Below are positions 1 to 29,107 of a DNA stretch of 64,000 nucleotides, in pieces. Made by a program: the position numbers and the translations under genes. The stretch is from a bacterium. Its GTDB lineage: Bacteria > Patescibacteriota > Minisyncoccia > Phycocordibacterales > UBA5272. The stretch covers positions 182 through 64,181 of the forward strand of contig JAHFNB010000004.1 of assembly GCA_023267595.1 (NCBI GenBank). The letters are read 5' to 3'. Position 1 is the first letter of the stretch; each line of letters begins with the position of its first letter. A model generated the notes under the pieces. That model was not told where the DNA came from and did no database searches. It saw only the letters and a list, made by a program, of their open reading frames with translations.

Positions 1-46
1 CACATTGACGTTGTGAATGTCAGAGGTTCGAATCCTCTATCGCCCA
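1..46 (+). tRNA. partial tRNA, 3' portion only (window begins inside the gene); isotype not determinable
   Basis: T-arm agagg/ttcgaat/cctct (about 22-38), acceptor 3' strand atcgccc (39-45), discriminator A46; possible long variable-arm hairpin acatt...aatgt (2-20). The 5' half lies outside the window. Confidence 0.5.
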
Positions 47-343
47 CAAGAAATAAACGAAGTGATTTTTTTATGGGCGATAAGTACGACACCTGCGTGT
101 CGTATGTGAGGATTCGAATAGGGGTCGAAGAGTCTACTGTTTTGAGTAATCACAAAACGAGACGAGGTGACCGAACATCCTCTATCGCCCACAAGAAATA
201 AACGAAGTGATTTTTTTATGGGCGATAAGTACGACACCTGCGTGTCGTATGTGAGGATTCGAATAGGGGTCGAAGAGTCTACTGTTTTGAGTAATCACAA
301 AACGAGACGAGGTGACCGAACATCCTCTATCGCCCACAAGAAA
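34..343 (+). repeat. tandem direct repeat, about 2.1 copies of a 145-bp unit (34-178, 179-323, partial 324-343); each unit starts with the tRNA 3'-end core cctctatcgcccacaagaaa
   Basis: Read directly: the core recurs at 34, 179 and 324 (period 145) and the two full units are identical. The first copy overlaps the genuine T-arm/acceptor; later copies lack the T-stem partner. Confidence 0.85.
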
Positions 344-360
344 TCTGCTTTAGCAGATTT
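341..360. terminator. perfect hairpin aaatctgc-ttta-gcagattt closing the repeat array
   Basis: 8-bp perfect inverted repeat with a 4-nt loop, seen in sequence; it lies just upstream of the next promoter. Confidence 0.35.
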
Positions 361-437: not shown

Positions 438-1361
438 ATGTCTCTGCAAGAACGCGTACTTATTACAGGTGCTGGAGGAATGCTAGGGAAGGCTGTTTAC
501 GAGAAAGCCATTGAAAAATACGGTAAAGATTTCGTTACGGCTACTGATATTGATCTTAATGAAGAGTGGCTCTCTATGCTCGATGTGCGTGATATTAAGG
601 CGTATGAGAATGCATTTGAAACATGGAAGCCAACTATCGTATTTCATCTTGCAGCACATACTGATCTTGAATACTGTGAGAAGAATTCAACTGATGCATG
701 GGCAACAAATGCTCTTGGTGCAGAAAATGCAGCAATACTTGCTCGTAAACATGATGCACTTTTGATTTATATAAGTACCGCGGGGATCTTTGATGGAAAG
801 AAGGATGAGTATGCAGATTTCGATACTCCTTCTCCACTTGGATATTATGCAAAGTCAAAGTTTCATGGGGAAAAGTTTGTGGAACAACATCTAAGTAGAT
901 ATTATATTTTCCGTGCGGGATGGATGATGGGAGGAGGAGTACAGAAAGATAAAAAGTTTATTAACAAGATTTATAAGCAGATAAAAGCAGGCGCACAAGA
1001 ATTATTTGTCGTTGAAGATAAGTTAGGGACACCAACATACACTGTTGATTTTGCAGGAGCAATGATGAAAGTAATTGATAGTGGATACTATGGATTGTAT
1101 AATCAAGTATGTGAAGGGGGTGGAAGTCGTTATGATGTTGCAGTAGAATTCGTACAACAACTAGGTCTTACTGACTCTGTTAAAGTGACAAAAGTAACGT
1201 CGGACTACTTCAAAGAAGAATATTTTGCAGAACGACCTGCATCTGAAAAATTATTGAATGTAAAACTTTCAATGCGAGGCATCAACTATATGCGAGATTG
1301 GCGTGTGTGTTTAGCAGAGTACGCCGTAGAGTTTAAGAATGATTTTTATGGAACATTATGA
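438..1361 (+). CDS. NAD(P)-dependent epimerase/dehydratase (extended SDR family; dTDP-sugar reductase / UDP-sugar epimerase-like)
   Basis: Rossmann motif VLITGAGGMLGKAV and catalytic YxxxK (YAKSK). An internal ATG at 438 was chosen over the ORF-track start at 378 because 378-437 contains the promoter. Confidence 0.75.
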   Translation: MSLQERVLITGAGGMLGKAVYEKAIEKYGKDFVTATDIDLNEEWLSMLDVRDIKAYENAFETWKPTIVFHLAAHTDLEYCEKNSTDAWATNALGAENAAILARKHDALLIYISTAGIFDGKKDEYADFDTPSPLGYYAKSKFHGEKFVEQHLSRYYIFRAGWMMGGGVQKDKKFINKIYKQIKAGAQELFVVEDKLGTPTYTVDFAGAMMKVIDSGYYGLYNQVCEGGGSRYDVAVEFVQQLGLTDSVKVTKVTSDYFKEEYFAERPASEKLLNVKLSMRGINYMRDWRVCLAEYAVEFKNDFYGTL

Positions 1362-2778: not shown

Positions 2779-3879
2779 TTATTTTAAGAGGTCAAATAAT
2801 GACCCACCACTTGCGAGGATAAAAAGTGAGACAGAAGAAAGGACAGGTAACAGAGAAAGGAAATAAAAAGTTTTTATTTTTTCCTTATTCTCTAGTGACC
2901 ATACAACGAAACCTATTAATGCAAATGGGACAATAGCCACATATCCTATATATAACACACGAGTGAGGAACATTGGCCAAATGAGTACTGGTAATGTTGC
3001 AAGCAATAGTGAACCACCCAAGATATAATTTTCTTTTGTGATAGATGTCTTTTTACGTAGGAGAGCATAGACCAAATATAAACAATATACCCATAAAAGA
3101 TTAAATGTAGATGCCTCAGTGAAAAAGAAATAGAAGAAGGTATGGTAGGTACTTTCAAATGTTTCTTTATTATAGAAATACCAATTGATAAAAGAAATGC
3201 CAGTTCCATTTCCATGGAACAATGAATATAAAAACAATGCTTGTAGAACAATAAAAGGAATACTTATGGTTAGAATATGTTTAAGGTATTCTTTTTTCTT
3301 TGTGTATACAAACATACTAAGCATATAGACACCTGCAAAAAATAATCCTAACACTCCAGTTTCTTTACAGAGTGATCCTAAGAATCCAAGGATTGAGGAG
3401 AATACGATGAGAAATGTACTTTGTTTACGTAAACCAATGAGAAATGTAGTGATGGTTGCAAGTGTAAAAAACCACCCAGAAATATCAGTAAGAAGTACAA
3501 GTCCAAATTTAAGAAGAGGATATCCAGTAGCAATCCATGTTGTCCCAATGATAGCAGACTTTTCTTTGAATCCTAGTTCTCGTAAAAAGAAGTACGATAA
3601 TATAATAATGCCAAAATAAAAGAATATATTGATAACAAGTATTGCCTGATGTTCTGTAAATAACGGCGTGAGATATGATCCAAGTATTCCGTAGAGCGGT
3701 TTAAAAGAACGTTTTTCTATATCTGGTGTTATTGCTATCTCATGATTTGCATAACGAATTTGGTCGACATAGACAACAGTATCTGTTTGTATATTAAGAA
3801 GACCATTACGATTAAAAATAAAACCAAGAGTTGCAACTCCTACAAGAATGATAATTGATAGAGCATGCTTGGTCTTCAT
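2779..3879 (-). CDS. polytopic integral membrane protein (GT-C-like glycosyltransferase or oligosaccharide-polymerase candidate)
   Basis: About 10 predicted hydrophobic helices with no soluble domain. It sits in a glycan-synthesis neighbourhood next to a GtrA-like gene. Confidence 0.45.
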   Translation of the reverse strand: MKTKHALSIIILVGVATLGFIFNRNGLLNIQTDTVVYVDQIRYANHEIAITPDIEKRSFKPLYGILGSYLTPLFTEHQAILVINIFFYFGIIILSYFFLRELGFKEKSAIIGTTWIATGYPLLKFGLVLLTDISGWFFTLATITTFLIGLRKQSTFLIVFSSILGFLGSLCKETGVLGLFFAGVYMLSMFVYTKKKEYLKHILTISIPFIVLQALFLYSLFHGNGTGISFINWYFYNKETFESTYHTFFYFFFTEASTFNLLWVYCLYLVYALLRKKTSITKENYILGGSLLLATLPVLIWPMFLTRVLYIGYVAIVPFALIGFVVWSLENKEKIKTFYFLSLLPVLSSVSLFILASGGSLFDLLK

Positions 3880-3881
3880 AA

Positions 3882-4286
3882 TTAGTGAAAGATAAATTTT
3901 TTACGAACCCAAAAGTTGTAGATGAGTATAATACAGGTCGATATCATTTTTGAAAAAAGATAGTATACGGCAAGTTTTTCTGTAAAAAACCAGATGAGAG
4001 ATTGGTTAAGTGCGAGGCCTGTGAGACTCACAAAAACTATGAGCCAGTATTCTTTGTGAATATTTGCAATTTTTGACCCTGTAAAGACGAAATATTTTGC
4101 AAGAATGTAATTGATATTTAGCCCAATAATAAATGCAATTGCTGCAGAAGTTAAGTAGTGAATATGTGCATATTCTGTAAGAGTAAAAAGTGTACCGAAA
4201 TCAAATAAAAAAGCCGTACCACCAACGAGGAGATATTTGAAAAACTGTAGTGCTAGTTTCTCATGCTTTTTAAGCAGGGTTATCAT
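3882..4286 (-). CDS. GtrA-family small membrane protein (polysaccharide synthesis/translocation accessory)
   Basis: About 130 aa, four TM helices, N-terminal motif FFKYLLVGGTAFLFDFG typical of the GtrA family. Confidence 0.65.
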   Translation of the reverse strand: MITLLKKHEKLALQFFKYLLVGGTAFLFDFGTLFTLTEYAHIHYLTSAAIAFIIGLNINYILAKYFVFTGSKIANIHKEYWLIVFVSLTGLALNQSLIWFFTEKLAVYYLFSKMISTCIILIYNFWVRKKFIFH

Positions 4287-4305
4287 TAAGGGTCAGTATA
4301 GCATT

Positions 4306-5820
4306 TTACACTCCACGCAAAACGGTTATTTTCGCTCCAATCGCGTTTAATCTCTCGGCAATATCTGCATACCCACGTTTTATAGAATAGACGTTTCTGA
4401 GCAAGGATGTGCCTGATGCTCCAAGCATTGCAATCAGAATAATTGCCGTAGGACGAAGTGCAGGAGGGGATACAATTTGTGCACCGCGCAGTTTGGTCAC
4501 TCCTGTAACTAGTGCTCGGTGTGGGTCGAGTAATTTTATATCTGCACCGAGTCTGTTTAATTCCGTAAAATAAATAGCACGATTCTCCCATGTCCAATCA
4601 TGAATAAGTGTTTGACCAGAGGCTATGCAACTAATGGGGACAAAGAAAGGGAGATTATCATTATTAATACCGGGAAAAGGTTGTGCATGTATCTTATCTG
4701 TCGGAGCAATGATTTTTGAAGGAAATATAGTGATATCGACAAGTGAAGTTCTGCCATTTTTTGCAAAATATAATTTTGAAAGGGTAAAACGTAATCCCAT
4801 ACGTTTTAATTTTTCTAATTCGAGTGTAAGAAATGTAATTGGTGCACGTGTTATGGTGAGTTTGGATTTTGTCACGATTCCTGCGGCAATGAAGAACATA
4901 CTCTCTATTGGATCTTCACTATTGTAGTGTTCGATATTTACATCGATATCCTTTTTCCCATGTACTATAAGTGTTGTGGTACCAATACCTTCTATTACTA
5001 TACCAAAACTCTCTAGGAGGAAACATACATCTTGTACTTGATAATTTGGTGGTGCAAACATAATAGTTGTTTTCCCTTCAATACGTGATGCGGCCAGAAT
5101 TGCAGTAATCGCACCAGTGTCAGATGATTCGTAGAGTGGAATAGTCCCCGTATGTAGTTTTCTATATGAAATATCGTAGTGGTTTTCTTTTGTCTCGACA
5201 TTAATACCAAGGTATTCTAGAGCATATTTATGTGATGCAACCGTGCGTTCACCCATTTTACATCCACCAGAATGTGGAAGTGTAAAATGATTACCATAAT
5301 GAACAAATGCACCCGCAAAGGTAAATGATCTAATTTGTGTTGCAACGGCTTTGTCTATTTTTGAAAAAGAAAGTTTCTTAGGGGGTGTGATTTCAAGAGC
5401 AGTGTCATCATATATCCACTTTATCTTTACACCGACACTTTCGAGCAATTCTTTGTAGCGATGTACTTCTTCTATGTGGGGGATATCACGTAAAATAGTC
5501 GTGCCATTATTGACGAGTGCAGCAACCATCATATTGATGGCACCATTTTTTGAGGTATTTGTCTTTATACTACCTGAAAGTTTATGACCACCCTCTACTT
5601 TGAAATCAATAGCATTGTGAATACTCACTATGTTGTGTTTAAGGACGTCGCTCATCTTCATGAGTTGGTCTATAGTTACATTTTGATTTCCTGATTCTAT
5701 GCGCGCAACTGCAGACTGGGATGTTTTGAGAGACTTTGCAAATTCTCCTTGCGTCATTCCACGCTCTTCACGTAGTTTTTTTATGAAAAGTCCTATTTTT
5801 TCTTGATCATTAGGAGGCAT
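4306..5820 (-). CDS. murA: UDP-N-acetylglucosamine 1-carboxyvinyltransferase (MurA) fused in frame to an N-terminal XRE-family helix-turn-helix domain
   Basis: Residues 10-55 (IGLFIKKLREERGMTQGEFAKSLKTSQSAVARIESG) form an HTH_3 domain. The remainder aligns to MurA, including the catalytic loop GGCKMGERTV (E. coli GGCTIGARPVD) and the C-terminal RGYADIAERLNAIGAKI. Confidence 0.8.
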   Translation of the reverse strand: MPPNDQEKIGLFIKKLREERGMTQGEFAKSLKTSQSAVARIESGNQNVTIDQLMKMSDVLKHNIVSIHNAIDFKVEGGHKLSGSIKTNTSKNGAINMMVAALVNNGTTILRDIPHIEEVHRYKELLESVGVKIKWIYDDTALEITPPKKLSFSKIDKAVATQIRSFTFAGAFVHYGNHFTLPHSGGCKMGERTVASHKYALEYLGINVETKENHYDISYRKLHTGTIPLYESSDTGAITAILAASRIEGKTTIMFAPPNYQVQDVCFLLESFGIVIEGIGTTTLIVHGKKDIDVNIEHYNSEDPIESMFFIAAGIVTKSKLTITRAPITFLTLELEKLKRMGLRFTLSKLYFAKNGRTSLVDITIFPSKIIAPTDKIHAQPFPGINNDNLPFFVPISCIASGQTLIHDWTWENRAIYFTELNRLGADIKLLDPHRALVTGVTKLRGAQIVSPPALRPTAIILIAMLGASGTSLLRNVYSIKRGYADIAERLNAIGAKITVLRGV

Positions 5821-27255: not shown

Positions 27256-27348
27256 TAGTATTTACGTATCGGGGATTCTACTGTAGTGAGGAGTGTTGAA
27301 GTGCGTCCATCGCAATGACTCATCAGTAGTTCATCCCTGACCCATCTT

Positions 27349-27419
27349 GGGCCTATAGTTTAGTGGTAGAACAACGGCCTCCAAATCCGTTGGTCGAGGT
27401 TCGATTCCTCGTGGGCCCG
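27349..27419 (+). tRNA. tRNA-Trp (anticodon CCA)
   Basis: Acceptor GGGCCTA/TGGGCCC (one G-U pair), D-arm GTTT-AGTGGTA-GAAC, anticodon loop CTCCAAA, T-arm CGAGG-TTCGATT-CCTCG, discriminator G. One C-U mismatch at the base of the anticodon stem. Confidence 0.85.
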
Positions 27420-27421
27420 CA

Positions 27422-27462
27422 CAATTCAAAACACACAGATTCTTTCTGTGTGTTTTGAATTG
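27422..27462 (+). terminator. 17-bp perfect hairpin caattcaaaacacacag-attcttt-ctgtgtgttttgaattg immediately 3' of tRNA-Trp
   Basis: Perfect inverted repeat read directly. Confidence 0.6.
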
Positions 27463-27473
27463 CTTAGGTTTTA

Positions 27474-27492
27474 CACGAGGAATCGAACGAGG
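27474..27492 (-). repeat. inverted partial copy of the tRNA-Trp T-arm/3' end (ttcgattcctcgtg, 14 of 14)
   Basis: The reverse complement of 27474-27492 is cctcgttcgattcctcgtg. Confidence 0.6.
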
Positions 27493-27590
27493 AAAGGGGT
27501 CGGGAAAACGTGTTTAGTTTTCCCGTGGCGGAAGAATGGAAACCGAGGGGTTTCCAAACCGTAATGAGTGATAACGAATGGAGGTTGTTC

Positions 27591-27607
27591 ATTCCTCGTG
27601 GGCCCGC
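27591..27607 (+). repeat. direct 17-bp copy of the tRNA-Trp 3' end attcctcgtgggcccgc (att-site-like scar)
   Basis: Identical to 27404-27420, located 187 bp downstream. Confidence 0.7.
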
Positions 27608-27653
27608 TTCTTTTCCACTACTGACTGATAACTGTTCACTGTATACTACATAT

Positions 27654-28730
27654 ATGGATAAGAAACTCCGTGTAGCAATCAATGGATTTGGGCGCATTGG
27701 TCGTGCGTTTTTTAAAGTAGCGCTTGCACATCCAGACATTGAGATTGTCGCAGTGAATGACTTGGGAGACGTACATAATCTCGCATATCTTCTTCAGTAC
27801 GATACTGTATATCGCGTGTCTTCATTTGATGTGCACGCAGAGATACATGAGGAAAGTAAAGAGCAATATCTTGTTATCGAAGGTGATATAGATATGAAAG
27901 TAAAAGTGGTACAGGAAAAAGACCCTAACTTGCTTCCGTGGAAGAGTATGGAAATTGATGTCGTAGTAGAATCAACAGGACTTTTTACAACATATGATAA
28001 AGCACAGGCTCATATCACTGCAGGAGCAAAACATGTGGTAATCTCAGCGCCTGCAAAAGACGGAGTAGATACAACAGTACTTGGAGAGACCATTTTAATG
28101 GGGGTAAATGAAGAAAAGTTTGGTACATGTACTATAACATCAAATGCATCATGTACCACGAATGCCTCATCCCCACTTATTGCAATACTTGATGAGACAT
28201 TAGGTATTGAAAAAGCAATTTTAAATACAGTACACGCGTATACCGCATCTCAAAGTATTGTAGACGGACCAAATAAAAAAGATTTTCGTGAAGGTAGGGC
28301 TGCTGCACAAAATATTGTCCCATCATCAACTGGTGCAGCAATCGCAGTGACAAAAGCATTTACAAAACTAACGGGACTATTTGATGGAATATCTATGCGC
28401 GTACCAGTTCCTGCAGGTTCAATCGTGGATGTTACCTTTATTTCAAAAAAAGAAACGACTGTGGAAGAAGTAAATAAGATTCTCACAGAAGCCTCACGTA
28501 TAAATAGATGGAAAGATATTTTTACAGTTACAGAAGAAGAATTAGTATCTAGTGATATCTTAGGACTTCCGTTTGCATCTATTGCAGATCTCAAAATGAC
28601 GCGTGTAGTAGGGGGAAATTTGGTGAAAGTACTGGCGTGGTATGATAATGAAATGGGGTATACTCACACACTAGTCGCACACGTTTTAAAAGCAGGAAAG
28701 ACAATACAGACAGTAGACAGTAGACTGTAG
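27654..28730 (+). CDS. gap: glyceraldehyde-3-phosphate dehydrogenase
   Basis: NGFGRIGR NAD motif and active-site SNASCTTN. Internal ATG chosen; the ORF-track start at 27510 reads through tRNA-derived repeats. Confidence 0.9.
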   Translation: MDKKLRVAINGFGRIGRAFFKVALAHPDIEIVAVNDLGDVHNLAYLLQYDTVYRVSSFDVHAEIHEESKEQYLVIEGDIDMKVKVVQEKDPNLLPWKSMEIDVVVESTGLFTTYDKAQAHITAGAKHVVISAPAKDGVDTTVLGETILMGVNEEKFGTCTITSNASCTTNASSPLIAILDETLGIEKAILNTVHAYTASQSIVDGPNKKDFREGRAAAQNIVPSSTGAAIAVTKAFTKLTGLFDGISMRVPVPAGSIVDVTFISKKETTVEEVNKILTEASRINRWKDIFTVTEEELVSSDILGLPFASIADLKMTRVVGGNLVKVLAWYDNEMGYTHTLVAHVLKAGKTIQTVDSRL

Positions 28731-28750: not shown

Positions 28751-29107
28751 ATGTCCTCATACAAAGATTTAATTGTTTGGCAAAAATCTTATAAACTTTC
28801 GCTTTTGATTTATTCAATTACCAAAAAATTTCCTAAAGAAGAAATGTTTGGATTAGTTTCTCAAATGCGCCGAGCAAGTGTATCTATTCCAAGTAATATA
28901 GCAGAAGGTAATAATAGGTTTGGTAAAAAAGACAATGCACAATTTCTTAGAATTGCTTATGGCTCTGCATCTGAACTTGAAACACAGTTATCAATTTCTA
29001 AAGATTTGAAGTTTACTTCAGATAAGGAGTATACTGAAGCATCAGGATTACTTTCTGAAATCATGAAAATGCTCTACACATTATTAGTTCGGGTCTCTAA
29101 TGTCTAA
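28751..29107 (+). CDS. four-helix-bundle protein (TIGR02436 / 23S rRNA intervening-sequence protein family)
   Basis: DLIVWQKSYKL...FPKEEMFGLVSQMRRASVSIPSNIAEGNNR matches the family signature. Confidence 0.75.
   Translation: MSSYKDLIVWQKSYKLSLLIYSITKKFPKEEMFGLVSQMRRASVSIPSNIAEGNNRFGKKDNAQFLRIAYGSASELETQLSISKDLKFTSDKEYTEASGLLSEIMKMLYTLLVRVSNV

Follow-up and report, generated by a model that had tools for sequence, protein, structure and literature searches.

Repeats downstream of a patescibacterial tRNA-Trp gene and a candidate class of folded, tRNA-linked elements

In the stretch of DNA analysed here (the window, 64 kb), the tRNA-Trp(CCA) gene is followed by a perfect hairpin and then by an inverted and a direct copy of its own 3' end (Table 1). 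Are these repeats the trace of an island that once integrated at the tRNA gene, as proposed in the initial annotation, which read the locus as an excision or integration scar at a tRNA att site, or do they belong to a different kind of genetic element? The genes of the window, whose G+C content is 36.6%, are all of the housekeeping kind expected in Patescibacteria (among them T4SS-pilin paralogues, a split transketolase and the genes for GlyRS, L33, GAPDH, RpiB and Rpe), and its closest public relatives are Paceibacteria/Nomurabacteria MAGs. The window corresponds to contig k141_7566441 of ENA ERZ27279942; an exact-match query with its GAPDH retrieved no record. A Pfam scan of the ~60 ORFs of the 64-kb window detected no integrase, tyrosine or serine recombinase, transposase or reverse transcriptase and no NusG-like protein; a search for tyrosine-integrase genes, suggested in the initial annotation, thus came back empty.

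The tRNA-Trp locus and its relatives

Exactly two copies of the direct repeat, ATTCCTCGTGGGCCCGC, are present within the 64 kb: 27404-27420 and, as originally described, 27591-27607. There are no further copies even with up to three mismatches allowed, and shuffled versions of the sequence contain none (0 in 100 shuffles). The first copy consists of the 3' half of the T-loop, the 3' strands of the T-stem and of the acceptor stem, the discriminator G and one additional nucleotide, the 3' boundary of the tRNA being placed at 27420 by ARAGORN and at 27419 by Rfam. If one missing base is allowed, the second copy grows by 4 nt in the 5' direction (GTTC, 27587-27590). The inverted copy is a perfect 15-mer, CACGAGGAATCGAAC, that starts at 27474, as first reported, and ends at 27488 rather than at 27492; it is complementary to positions 27399-27413 of tRNA-Trp and also pairs with 27587-27600. 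Neither the inverted nor the direct copy is expected by chance, and the same holds for the hairpin. The hairpin (arms 27422-27439 and 27445-27462) is perfect, as initially noted, and comprises 18 bp, not 17, with 100% complementarity and a 5-nt loop. The order of the locus is thus tRNA-Trp, the hairpin, 11 nt and an element of ~135 nt. An imperfect 14-nt direct repeat (27562-27575, TAATGAGTGATAAC; 27619-27632, TACTGACTGATAAC) straddles the end of this element and the upstream region of gap.

Table 1. Features of the tRNA-Trp locus and of the tRNA-Val array in the window
Feature	Position	Strand	Basis or remark
tRNA truncated by the start of the window (3' part only); anticodon Val GAC by reading of the sequence	1-46	+	Rfam tRNA, 5'-truncated
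Two identical 145-bp element units, with the tRNA-Val 3' end (23 nt) copied at the end of each	32-344	+	TRF
tRNA-Trp(CCA) gene, CCA not encoded	27349-27420	+	ARAGORN; Rfam tRNA, 66.5 bits
Direct repeat, copy 1	27404-27420	+	exact 17-mer, 2 copies, 0 expected
Perfect 18-bp hairpin, A-tract before and T-tract after, intrinsic-terminator-like	27422-27462	+	
Element 5' arm: inverted T-arm copy (complement of T-loop and T-stem 3' strand)	27474-27488	+	
Element core with two inner hairpins	27489-27586	+	fold z=-2.9
Element 3' arm and tail: GTTC, followed by direct repeat copy 2 (17 nt of the tRNA 3' end, exact)	27587-27607	+	
Conserved gap upstream region, alignable with relatives, beginning directly after repeat copy 2	27608-27653	+	
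gap (GAPDH), context	27654-28730	+	Pfam Gp_dh_N/Gp_dh_C

The hairpin is most plausibly the intrinsic terminator of tRNA-Trp and not a component of the inserted element because a homologous hairpin (AAAACACACGA...TCGTGTGTTTT) is found 3' of tRNA-Trp in the related locus L213, where the element is absent. A terminator scan reported it as a terminator-like site, with a G+C-containing stem and a T-run after it. In its preceding A-tract and following T-tract, the hairpin fits a Rho-independent terminator, and related tRNA genes carry comparable hairpins; however, this likeness covers the hairpin only and leaves the inverted and direct tRNA copies unaccounted for. In several other loci (L003, 5143-5190; L209, 4780-4840; the linkers after the tRNA in L170, L184 and L190), the stem of the terminator hairpin often uses the acceptor 3' strand of the tRNA, and the complement after the loop also supplies the 'acceptor 5' strand' of the adjacent element.

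We compared ten related loci with the window at the DNA level (L001, L003, L005, L206, L209, L210, L211, L213, L214 and L215). Most of them share the order glyS, rpmG, tRNA-Trp, no or one unrelated gene, gap and rpiB, with rpe next where the locus extends that far. In two additional loci, for which gene calls alone were compared, rpmG is directly followed by gap in one, and genes are added between glyS and rpmG in the other. There is, then, no synteny break of the kind that had been suspected: the presence of gap instead of secE-nusG at this place is normal for the clade. In L211, which comes from the same sample as the window, and in L215, tRNA-Trp is directly followed by gap, with 59 and 85 nt, respectively, to the ATG; these are empty sites. 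The comparison of the junction proposed at the outset accordingly revealed presence and absence of the element at the exact place (L211 and L215 empty, L005 filled) and, in most of the loci, the same gene order.

The interval between tRNA-Trp and gap varies among the relatives; its occupants are an Exo_endo_phos gene in L206, a DUF5667 gene in L209 and other small ORFs in L001, L003 and L210. The entire interval between rpmG and gap is a rearrangement hot spot. In three loci, tRNA-Trp is inverted relative to glyS and gap, with differing small ORFs nearby (L001, 3549-3622; L210, 4545-4618; L213, 4228-4299). Between gap and rpiB, the window encodes a 23S_rRNA_IVP/bAvd-like four-helix-bundle protein (28751-29107); its gene is missing at this position in L206 and L211 and is thus another small variable insertion in the operon.

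The region upstream of tRNA-Trp has features of its own. A structured leader lies directly 5' of the tRNA in the window (27260-27348; fold z=-3.0) and in L003 (~4840-4999), L206 (~4720-4848) and L215 (~5560-5721). In the relatives, the leader is longer and carries GTAGGATAGGTGGGAGG.TTT.AAG ... GGA.CCGACGTTGAAATA; we take this longer version to be closely similar to the L1-stalk region of 23S rRNA, and the leader could be an L1-binding or tRNA-elbow-binding mimic. A search of the leader against Rfam yielded no match. Several relatives additionally contain, between rpmG and the leader, a conserved segment of ~120-190 bp bounded by long inverted repeats (L206, ~4540-4660; L209, ~4510-4630; L211, ~4550-4680; L213, on the reverse strand), which is absent in the window.

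The inverted copy and its partner form the predicted closing helix of the Trp element, CACGAGGAAU-C-GAAC paired with GUUC-AUUCCUCGUG, which encloses a domain of ~135 nt (fold z=-2.9) with inner hairpins at 27501-27509/27517-27525 and 27537-27544/27549-27556; the rest of the tRNA copy, GGCCCGC, is the 3' tail. No ORF was found in the 170 bp between the repeats. Local alignment against shuffled sequences detected no significant similarity between the interior and tRNA-Trp (p=0.2 for the same strand, p=0.8 for the reverse complement), so that the element is not a decayed tRNA copy.

The element is homologous to the region 3' of tRNA-Trp in L005 (3216-3520). The two are alignable throughout and have the 16-mer GCGGAAGAATGGAAAC in common, and the local score for L005 (z=13.2) compares with at most 3.2 in the 9 other tRNA-Trp loci. 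The gene downstream of the L005 element is not the same as in the window; because of this different gene context, we associate the element with the tRNA and not with gap. We also considered, and rejected, a T-box-like tRNA sensor or a regulatory leader of gap: the conserved gap upstream region begins after the element, and the downstream genes differ between elements. The arms of the L005 element, ACGAAGAGUCGAAC and GUUCAUUCUUCAU, still pair, the acceptor part of the copy having drifted. These arms fit a T-stem with the strands CGAAG/CTTCG, as in the L209 tRNA, and not the CAAGG/CCTTG of the tRNA that they follow in L005.

Copies behind other tRNA genes

The second tRNA-3'-end repeat structure mentioned in the initial annotation is indeed present: the window starts with a tRNA-Val array (1-344) that contains 2.2 copies of a 145-bp unit with 100% identity, and copies of the 23-nt tRNA 3' end are located at 32-54, 177-199 and 322-344. 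The parts of each unit are a copied acceptor 5' strand, a hairpin whose loop is CTGC, a complement of the T-arm, a core and the 23-nt copy; as delimited by a covariance model (see below), the units span 83-193 and 228-338. A hairpin at ~345-362, which follows the last unit only, looks terminator-like by eye and was not flagged by the terminator scan.

A script that scanned the surroundings of each of the 26 tRNAs of the window and the first 80 loci for copies of the tRNA's 3' end revealed the same plan behind tRNA-Gly(CCC) in L041 (two 157-bp units), tRNA-Leu(TAA) in L019 and tRNA-Phe in L038. The design recurs behind ~25 other tRNAs with many anticodons in Patescibacteria contigs. In a full unit, a linker comes after the tRNA, and ACGAAGTGA or a terminator-like hairpin is frequent in this linker. 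Next in order are a copied acceptor 5' strand; the CTGC-loop hairpin, denoted P2, which is placed 2-3 nt before the T-stem copy; GT; a T-stem part made up of the T-stem 5' strand and the complement of the T-loop; the core; and the copy of the tRNA 3' end.

A scan of metagenomes with the P2 motif returned mostly chance matches in high-GC DNA, plus 17 true copies. The upstream tRNA of these copies, called in most cases, was always on the same strand (Arg in four cases, Asp, Leu, Phe, Glu, His and Tyr). Tandem arrangements occur among the copies, and two different unit types are arranged in series behind a single tRNA in L170 and in L200. A phage origin was rejected: all matches to the P2 motif in IMG/VR were chance occurrences in coding DNA with 63-66% GC.

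For ten units, denoted type B, RNAalifold produced a consensus of 36 pairs, 21 of these with compensatory changes, and the covariance model R1 was built from the same ten. R1 detected units outside its training set; they include both Val units, which score 40.3 bits (E=4e-8), and tRNA-trailing units in L009, L014, L019, L038 (three tRNAs) and L041. Across the 20 matches aligned with R1, 19 of which were outside training, 93.4% of the cells were paired, compared to 58.4% in shuffles (0/500) and 34-49% with slid partners; all 36 of the 36 pairs had changes on both sides in this alignment, which was fitted to the model. A second model, R2, was built from these 20 matches, for which its scores are not independent; this applies to the 66.9 bits of the two Val units, both of which are among the training rows. 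In a search of 912 kb from loci whose selection had nothing to do with the element, R2 gave 10 matches, all 10 directly 3' of a tRNA on the same strand, and nothing beyond the known units. In the sampled loci, 8 of roughly 34 tRNAs are occupied. Within the paired columns, the counts of G-U (20) versus A-C (12) decide neither which strand folds nor between RNA and single-stranded DNA.

In most members, the repeat copies cease to be identical at the discriminator or 1-3 nt past it. Behind tRNA-Met in L106, by contrast with this rule, a 33-nt duplication runs ~20 nt into the trailer and so looks like a duplication at the DNA level, not like the outcome of selection for mimicry. The members behind tRNA-Arg in L038 and tRNA-Phe in L014 have kept the core and have no tRNA-derived arms. 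L038 also contains three adjacent tRNAs, Glu, Arg and Phe, on alternating strands, each followed by a model-defined element (3660-4825). In L100 (~1256-1300, minus strand) and L197 (3430-3471), an extra short hairpin interrupts the copy of the tRNA 3' end, within or beside the T-stem 3' strand. In L156 (oriented with the element on the plus strand), ~395 nt flanked by a direct repeat of ~30 nt lie behind tRNA-Asn, and a canonical element comes next, ~400 nt after the tRNA. This repeat spans the whole T-arm and the 3' end of tRNA-Asn, and the ~395 nt could represent a longer insertion of a different type; in this region, Rfam matched only the tRNA.

In Rfam 15, no family other than tRNA matched, and none overlapped any element even at E values up to 5-10. 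A full-text search of the literature retrieved no description of a family of elements trailing tRNAs. As judged by the covariance models, the copies define a strongly covarying structured family linked to tRNA 3' ends, and this family appears to be undescribed.

How does the Trp element relate to this family? Two family traits are present, namely, the position 3' of a tRNA on the same strand (27474-27607, after the tRNA at 27349-27420) and the closing helix. The core contains AGGGGTCG and GGCGGAAG, motifs common to other members, and AAUCGAAC, CGAGG and GGGGUCG (the last in the Val unit of the same genome) are further short motifs that it has in common with the family; the 8-mer AGGGGTCG, common to the Trp and Val elements, is a post-hoc motif that is not significant alone. 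The copy of the acceptor 5' strand is absent, as is the P2 hairpin with its CUGC tetraloop, which is also lacking in the L005 homologue and present in the Val units. The Trp element has the T-like helix only, with a single-stranded acceptor tail, whereas the Val, Gly and many other elements contain both strands of the acceptor-like and T-like helices. With filters off, R1 and R2 gave it only 0.2-6.7 bits, and for this reason we do not file it as a model-defined member; an HMM of related 'type D' cores missed both elements of the window, Trp and Val, so that sequence similarity alone is too weak a guide. We regard the Trp element as a version of this design that has been reduced or has diverged. 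This copy may be decaying, given that it has neither P2 nor the acceptor 5' strand and sits behind a terminator.

Possible origin and function

The Trp repeats are very probably not the remains of an integrated island. We give about even credence to the reading that they belong to a small, ORF-less, folded element that is linked to the tRNA, ends in a helix mimicking the tRNA and is gained and lost via direct repeats. The traits with direct support are the conserved fold, the strict linkage to tRNA 3' ends, the arms that copy the tRNA, the tandem units and the presence/absence polymorphism. In the full version of such an element, P2 would form a three-way junction together with the copied acceptor 5' strand and T-stem, imitating the acceptor/T-arm minihelix of the neighbouring tRNA, the conserved covarying core taking the place of the T-loop. 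The plus strand would be transcribed together with the tRNA or by read-through, and the transcript would fold such that its tRNA-like end could be recognised or trimmed in the manner of that tRNA; candidate recognisers include RNase P, RNase Z, the CCA-adding enzyme or a factor specific for the given acceptor stem. In the Val array, the terminator-like hairpin comes after the last unit and, in the Trp locus, a terminator lies between the tRNA and the element. At the DNA level, the direct repeats of 17-23 nt might drive tandem amplification (Val, Gly) and precise loss, which would explain the patchy distribution and the empty sites.

The low covariance-model scores of the Trp element and its place behind a terminator-like hairpin speak against this explanation, as do the members without tRNA-derived arms (L038 Arg, L014 Phe) and the Met duplication of L106, for which it has no account. 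Nor does it account for how the arms come to match each different tRNA, and it is on this point that a mobile or guide-type mechanism stays its main rival. In that case, the unit would be a non-autonomous mobile element inserting specifically at tRNA 3' ends, with the direct repeat as a target duplication or a carried tRNA end and the enzyme encoded elsewhere. This enzyme would be guided by, or recognise, a helix provided by the inverted copy or by the 3' tail; EBS/IBS pairing of introns, bridge RNAs and TnpB omega RNA are possible analogies. We consider such an element rather unlikely, even though much of its expected behaviour is observed: patchy presence at orthologous tRNA-Trp loci with clean empty sites, occupation of about a quarter of the tRNAs in the sampled loci with any anticodon eligible, the series of different unit types in L170 and L200, and arms that exactly match each target tRNA. 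The extension of the Met repeat in L106 into the trailer and the fit of the L005 arms to another tRNA-Trp T-stem variant would follow as well. However, there is no candidate enzyme in the 64-kb window or consistently beside the elements, the duplications of 17-33 nt match no known transposase, and no identical dispersed copies were seen. Also against it, the second repeat copy is itself the right arm instead of lying outside terminal repeats and, at the Trp locus, the terminator of the tRNA, conserved in the element-free L213, stands between the first copy and the element.

Far less probable is an attL/attR-type scar, left at the T-loop sublocation of tRNA-Trp by an integrase island or prophage that decayed or was imprecisely excised. 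As a description, the original proposal is partly supported, by the duplication at the tRNA 3' end and by the existence of empty sites; as a mechanism it is not, in view of the lack of an integrase, of cargo and of a synteny break. The direct repeat does run from the T-loop to the end of the tRNA, as at T-loop attB sites, and the interval up to gap is variable in the relatives, with different single genes and with the tRNA inverted in L001, L210 and L213. Against this, no integrase is encoded anywhere in the window, just 170 bp without an ORF separate the repeats, the core is conserved with L005 and folds, and the IMG/VR scan with the P2 hairpin motif gave no true copy. Moreover, the same architecture and the conserved covarying core recur behind many tRNAs with the arms matched to each, a pattern that a decayed island would not produce. 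We therefore regard the scar as already largely refuted.

The least credible alternative, a decayed tandem or inverted tRNA-Trp duplicate (pseudo-tRNA fragments) or a chance repeat, can draw on the tRNA origin of both arms and on a weak resemblance of TCCAAA-CCGT to the anticodon loop but is at odds with exact arms around an unrelated interior that lacks significant tRNA similarity, with a 17-mer not expected by chance and with the recurrence of the design at other tRNAs; we consider it refuted. A hammerhead ribozyme was also rejected: the Rfam match, on the minus strand, was weak (20.8 bits versus a gathering score of 75), and the core motifs are absent.

Going beyond the tRNA-linked folded element at this locus, we consider it possible, if somewhat short of probable, that the window holds two members of an undescribed, widespread class of tRNA-cognate elements of Patescibacteria, each with a conserved structured scaffold of 110-190 nt and with a terminal helix and a 3' tail that are rewritten for each tRNA. 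Such elements could be programmable acceptor/T-arm mimics (a decoy, a processing handle or a chargeable minihelix), or else they could, as RNA or as folded single-stranded DNA, direct their own insertion to tRNA 3' ends. If so, roughly one-fourth to one-third of the sampled tRNA genes in some of the smallest bacterial genomes known would come with a conserved folded appendage in which the identity-bearing end of the tRNA is copied. Genomes subject to strong reduction seldom maintain stretches of 150-300 bp of non-coding DNA at many loci unless there is a reason. The first option would amount to a new kind of tRNA mimic, with a bearing on tRNA processing, on toxin or phage defence directed at tRNA ends and on non-ribosomal uses of aminoacylation; the second, to a new kind of site-specific selfish element in which the targeting information is readable in the element's own sequence. 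In practical terms, such repeats will pass as integration scars when islands in MAGs are called from tRNA 3'-end duplications.

Comparison with known systems

Integration sites in tRNA genes at the T-loop sublocation, together with their integrase-less remnants (CIMEs), resemble the loci described here in that a tRNA 3'-end repeat starting in the T-loop flanks extra DNA and that empty sites exist. The attB site of mycobacteriophage Ms6 at the T-loop of tRNA-Ala is an example (PMC1762012). Unlike att sites and CIMEs, the elements have neither integrase nor cargo; the extra DNA is a conserved folded unit of 135-190 nt, its inverted copy pairs with the repeat, and the same core is found behind many different tRNAs. 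Small mobile repeats of the MITE or REPIN type, like the elements, are short, ORF-less, bounded by inverted arms, sometimes tandem and patchy between relatives. In the elements, by contrast, the arms are specific to the adjacent tRNA and not common to the family, a short target duplication apart from the arms is lacking, all copies are confined to tRNA 3' ends, and the interior is strongly covarying; three hallmarks of MITEs, namely, family-wide terminal inverted repeats, a target duplication outside them and dispersed copies, were not observed.

Modules with tRNA-like processing include mascRNA/MALAT1, the dicistronic tRNA-snoRNA genes of plants, the tRNA-like domain of tmRNA and bacterial YrlA. 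By analogy with these, the acceptor/T-arm-like helix beside or within a non-tRNA RNA could plausibly be gripped by RNase P, RNase Z or the CCA-adding enzyme. However, the helix of the elements is a literal copy of the 3' end of the neighbouring tRNA that changes with the tRNA, a large core replaces the T-loop, and the Rfam models of these modules did not match the elements. References on the tRNA-snoRNA genes are given in PMC12045711.

The elements can finally be set against mobile systems with a guide. Guide-bearing mobile RNAs include group II introns with their EBS/IBS pairing, the IS110 bridge RNA and the TnpB omega RNA with its 3' guide. The elements differ from these in having no intron domains and no recombinase or TnpB gene, and their would-be guide segments pair with each other. 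What the elements may share with such RNAs is the general plan, a structured scaffold that carries segments complementary or identical to the adjoining DNA.
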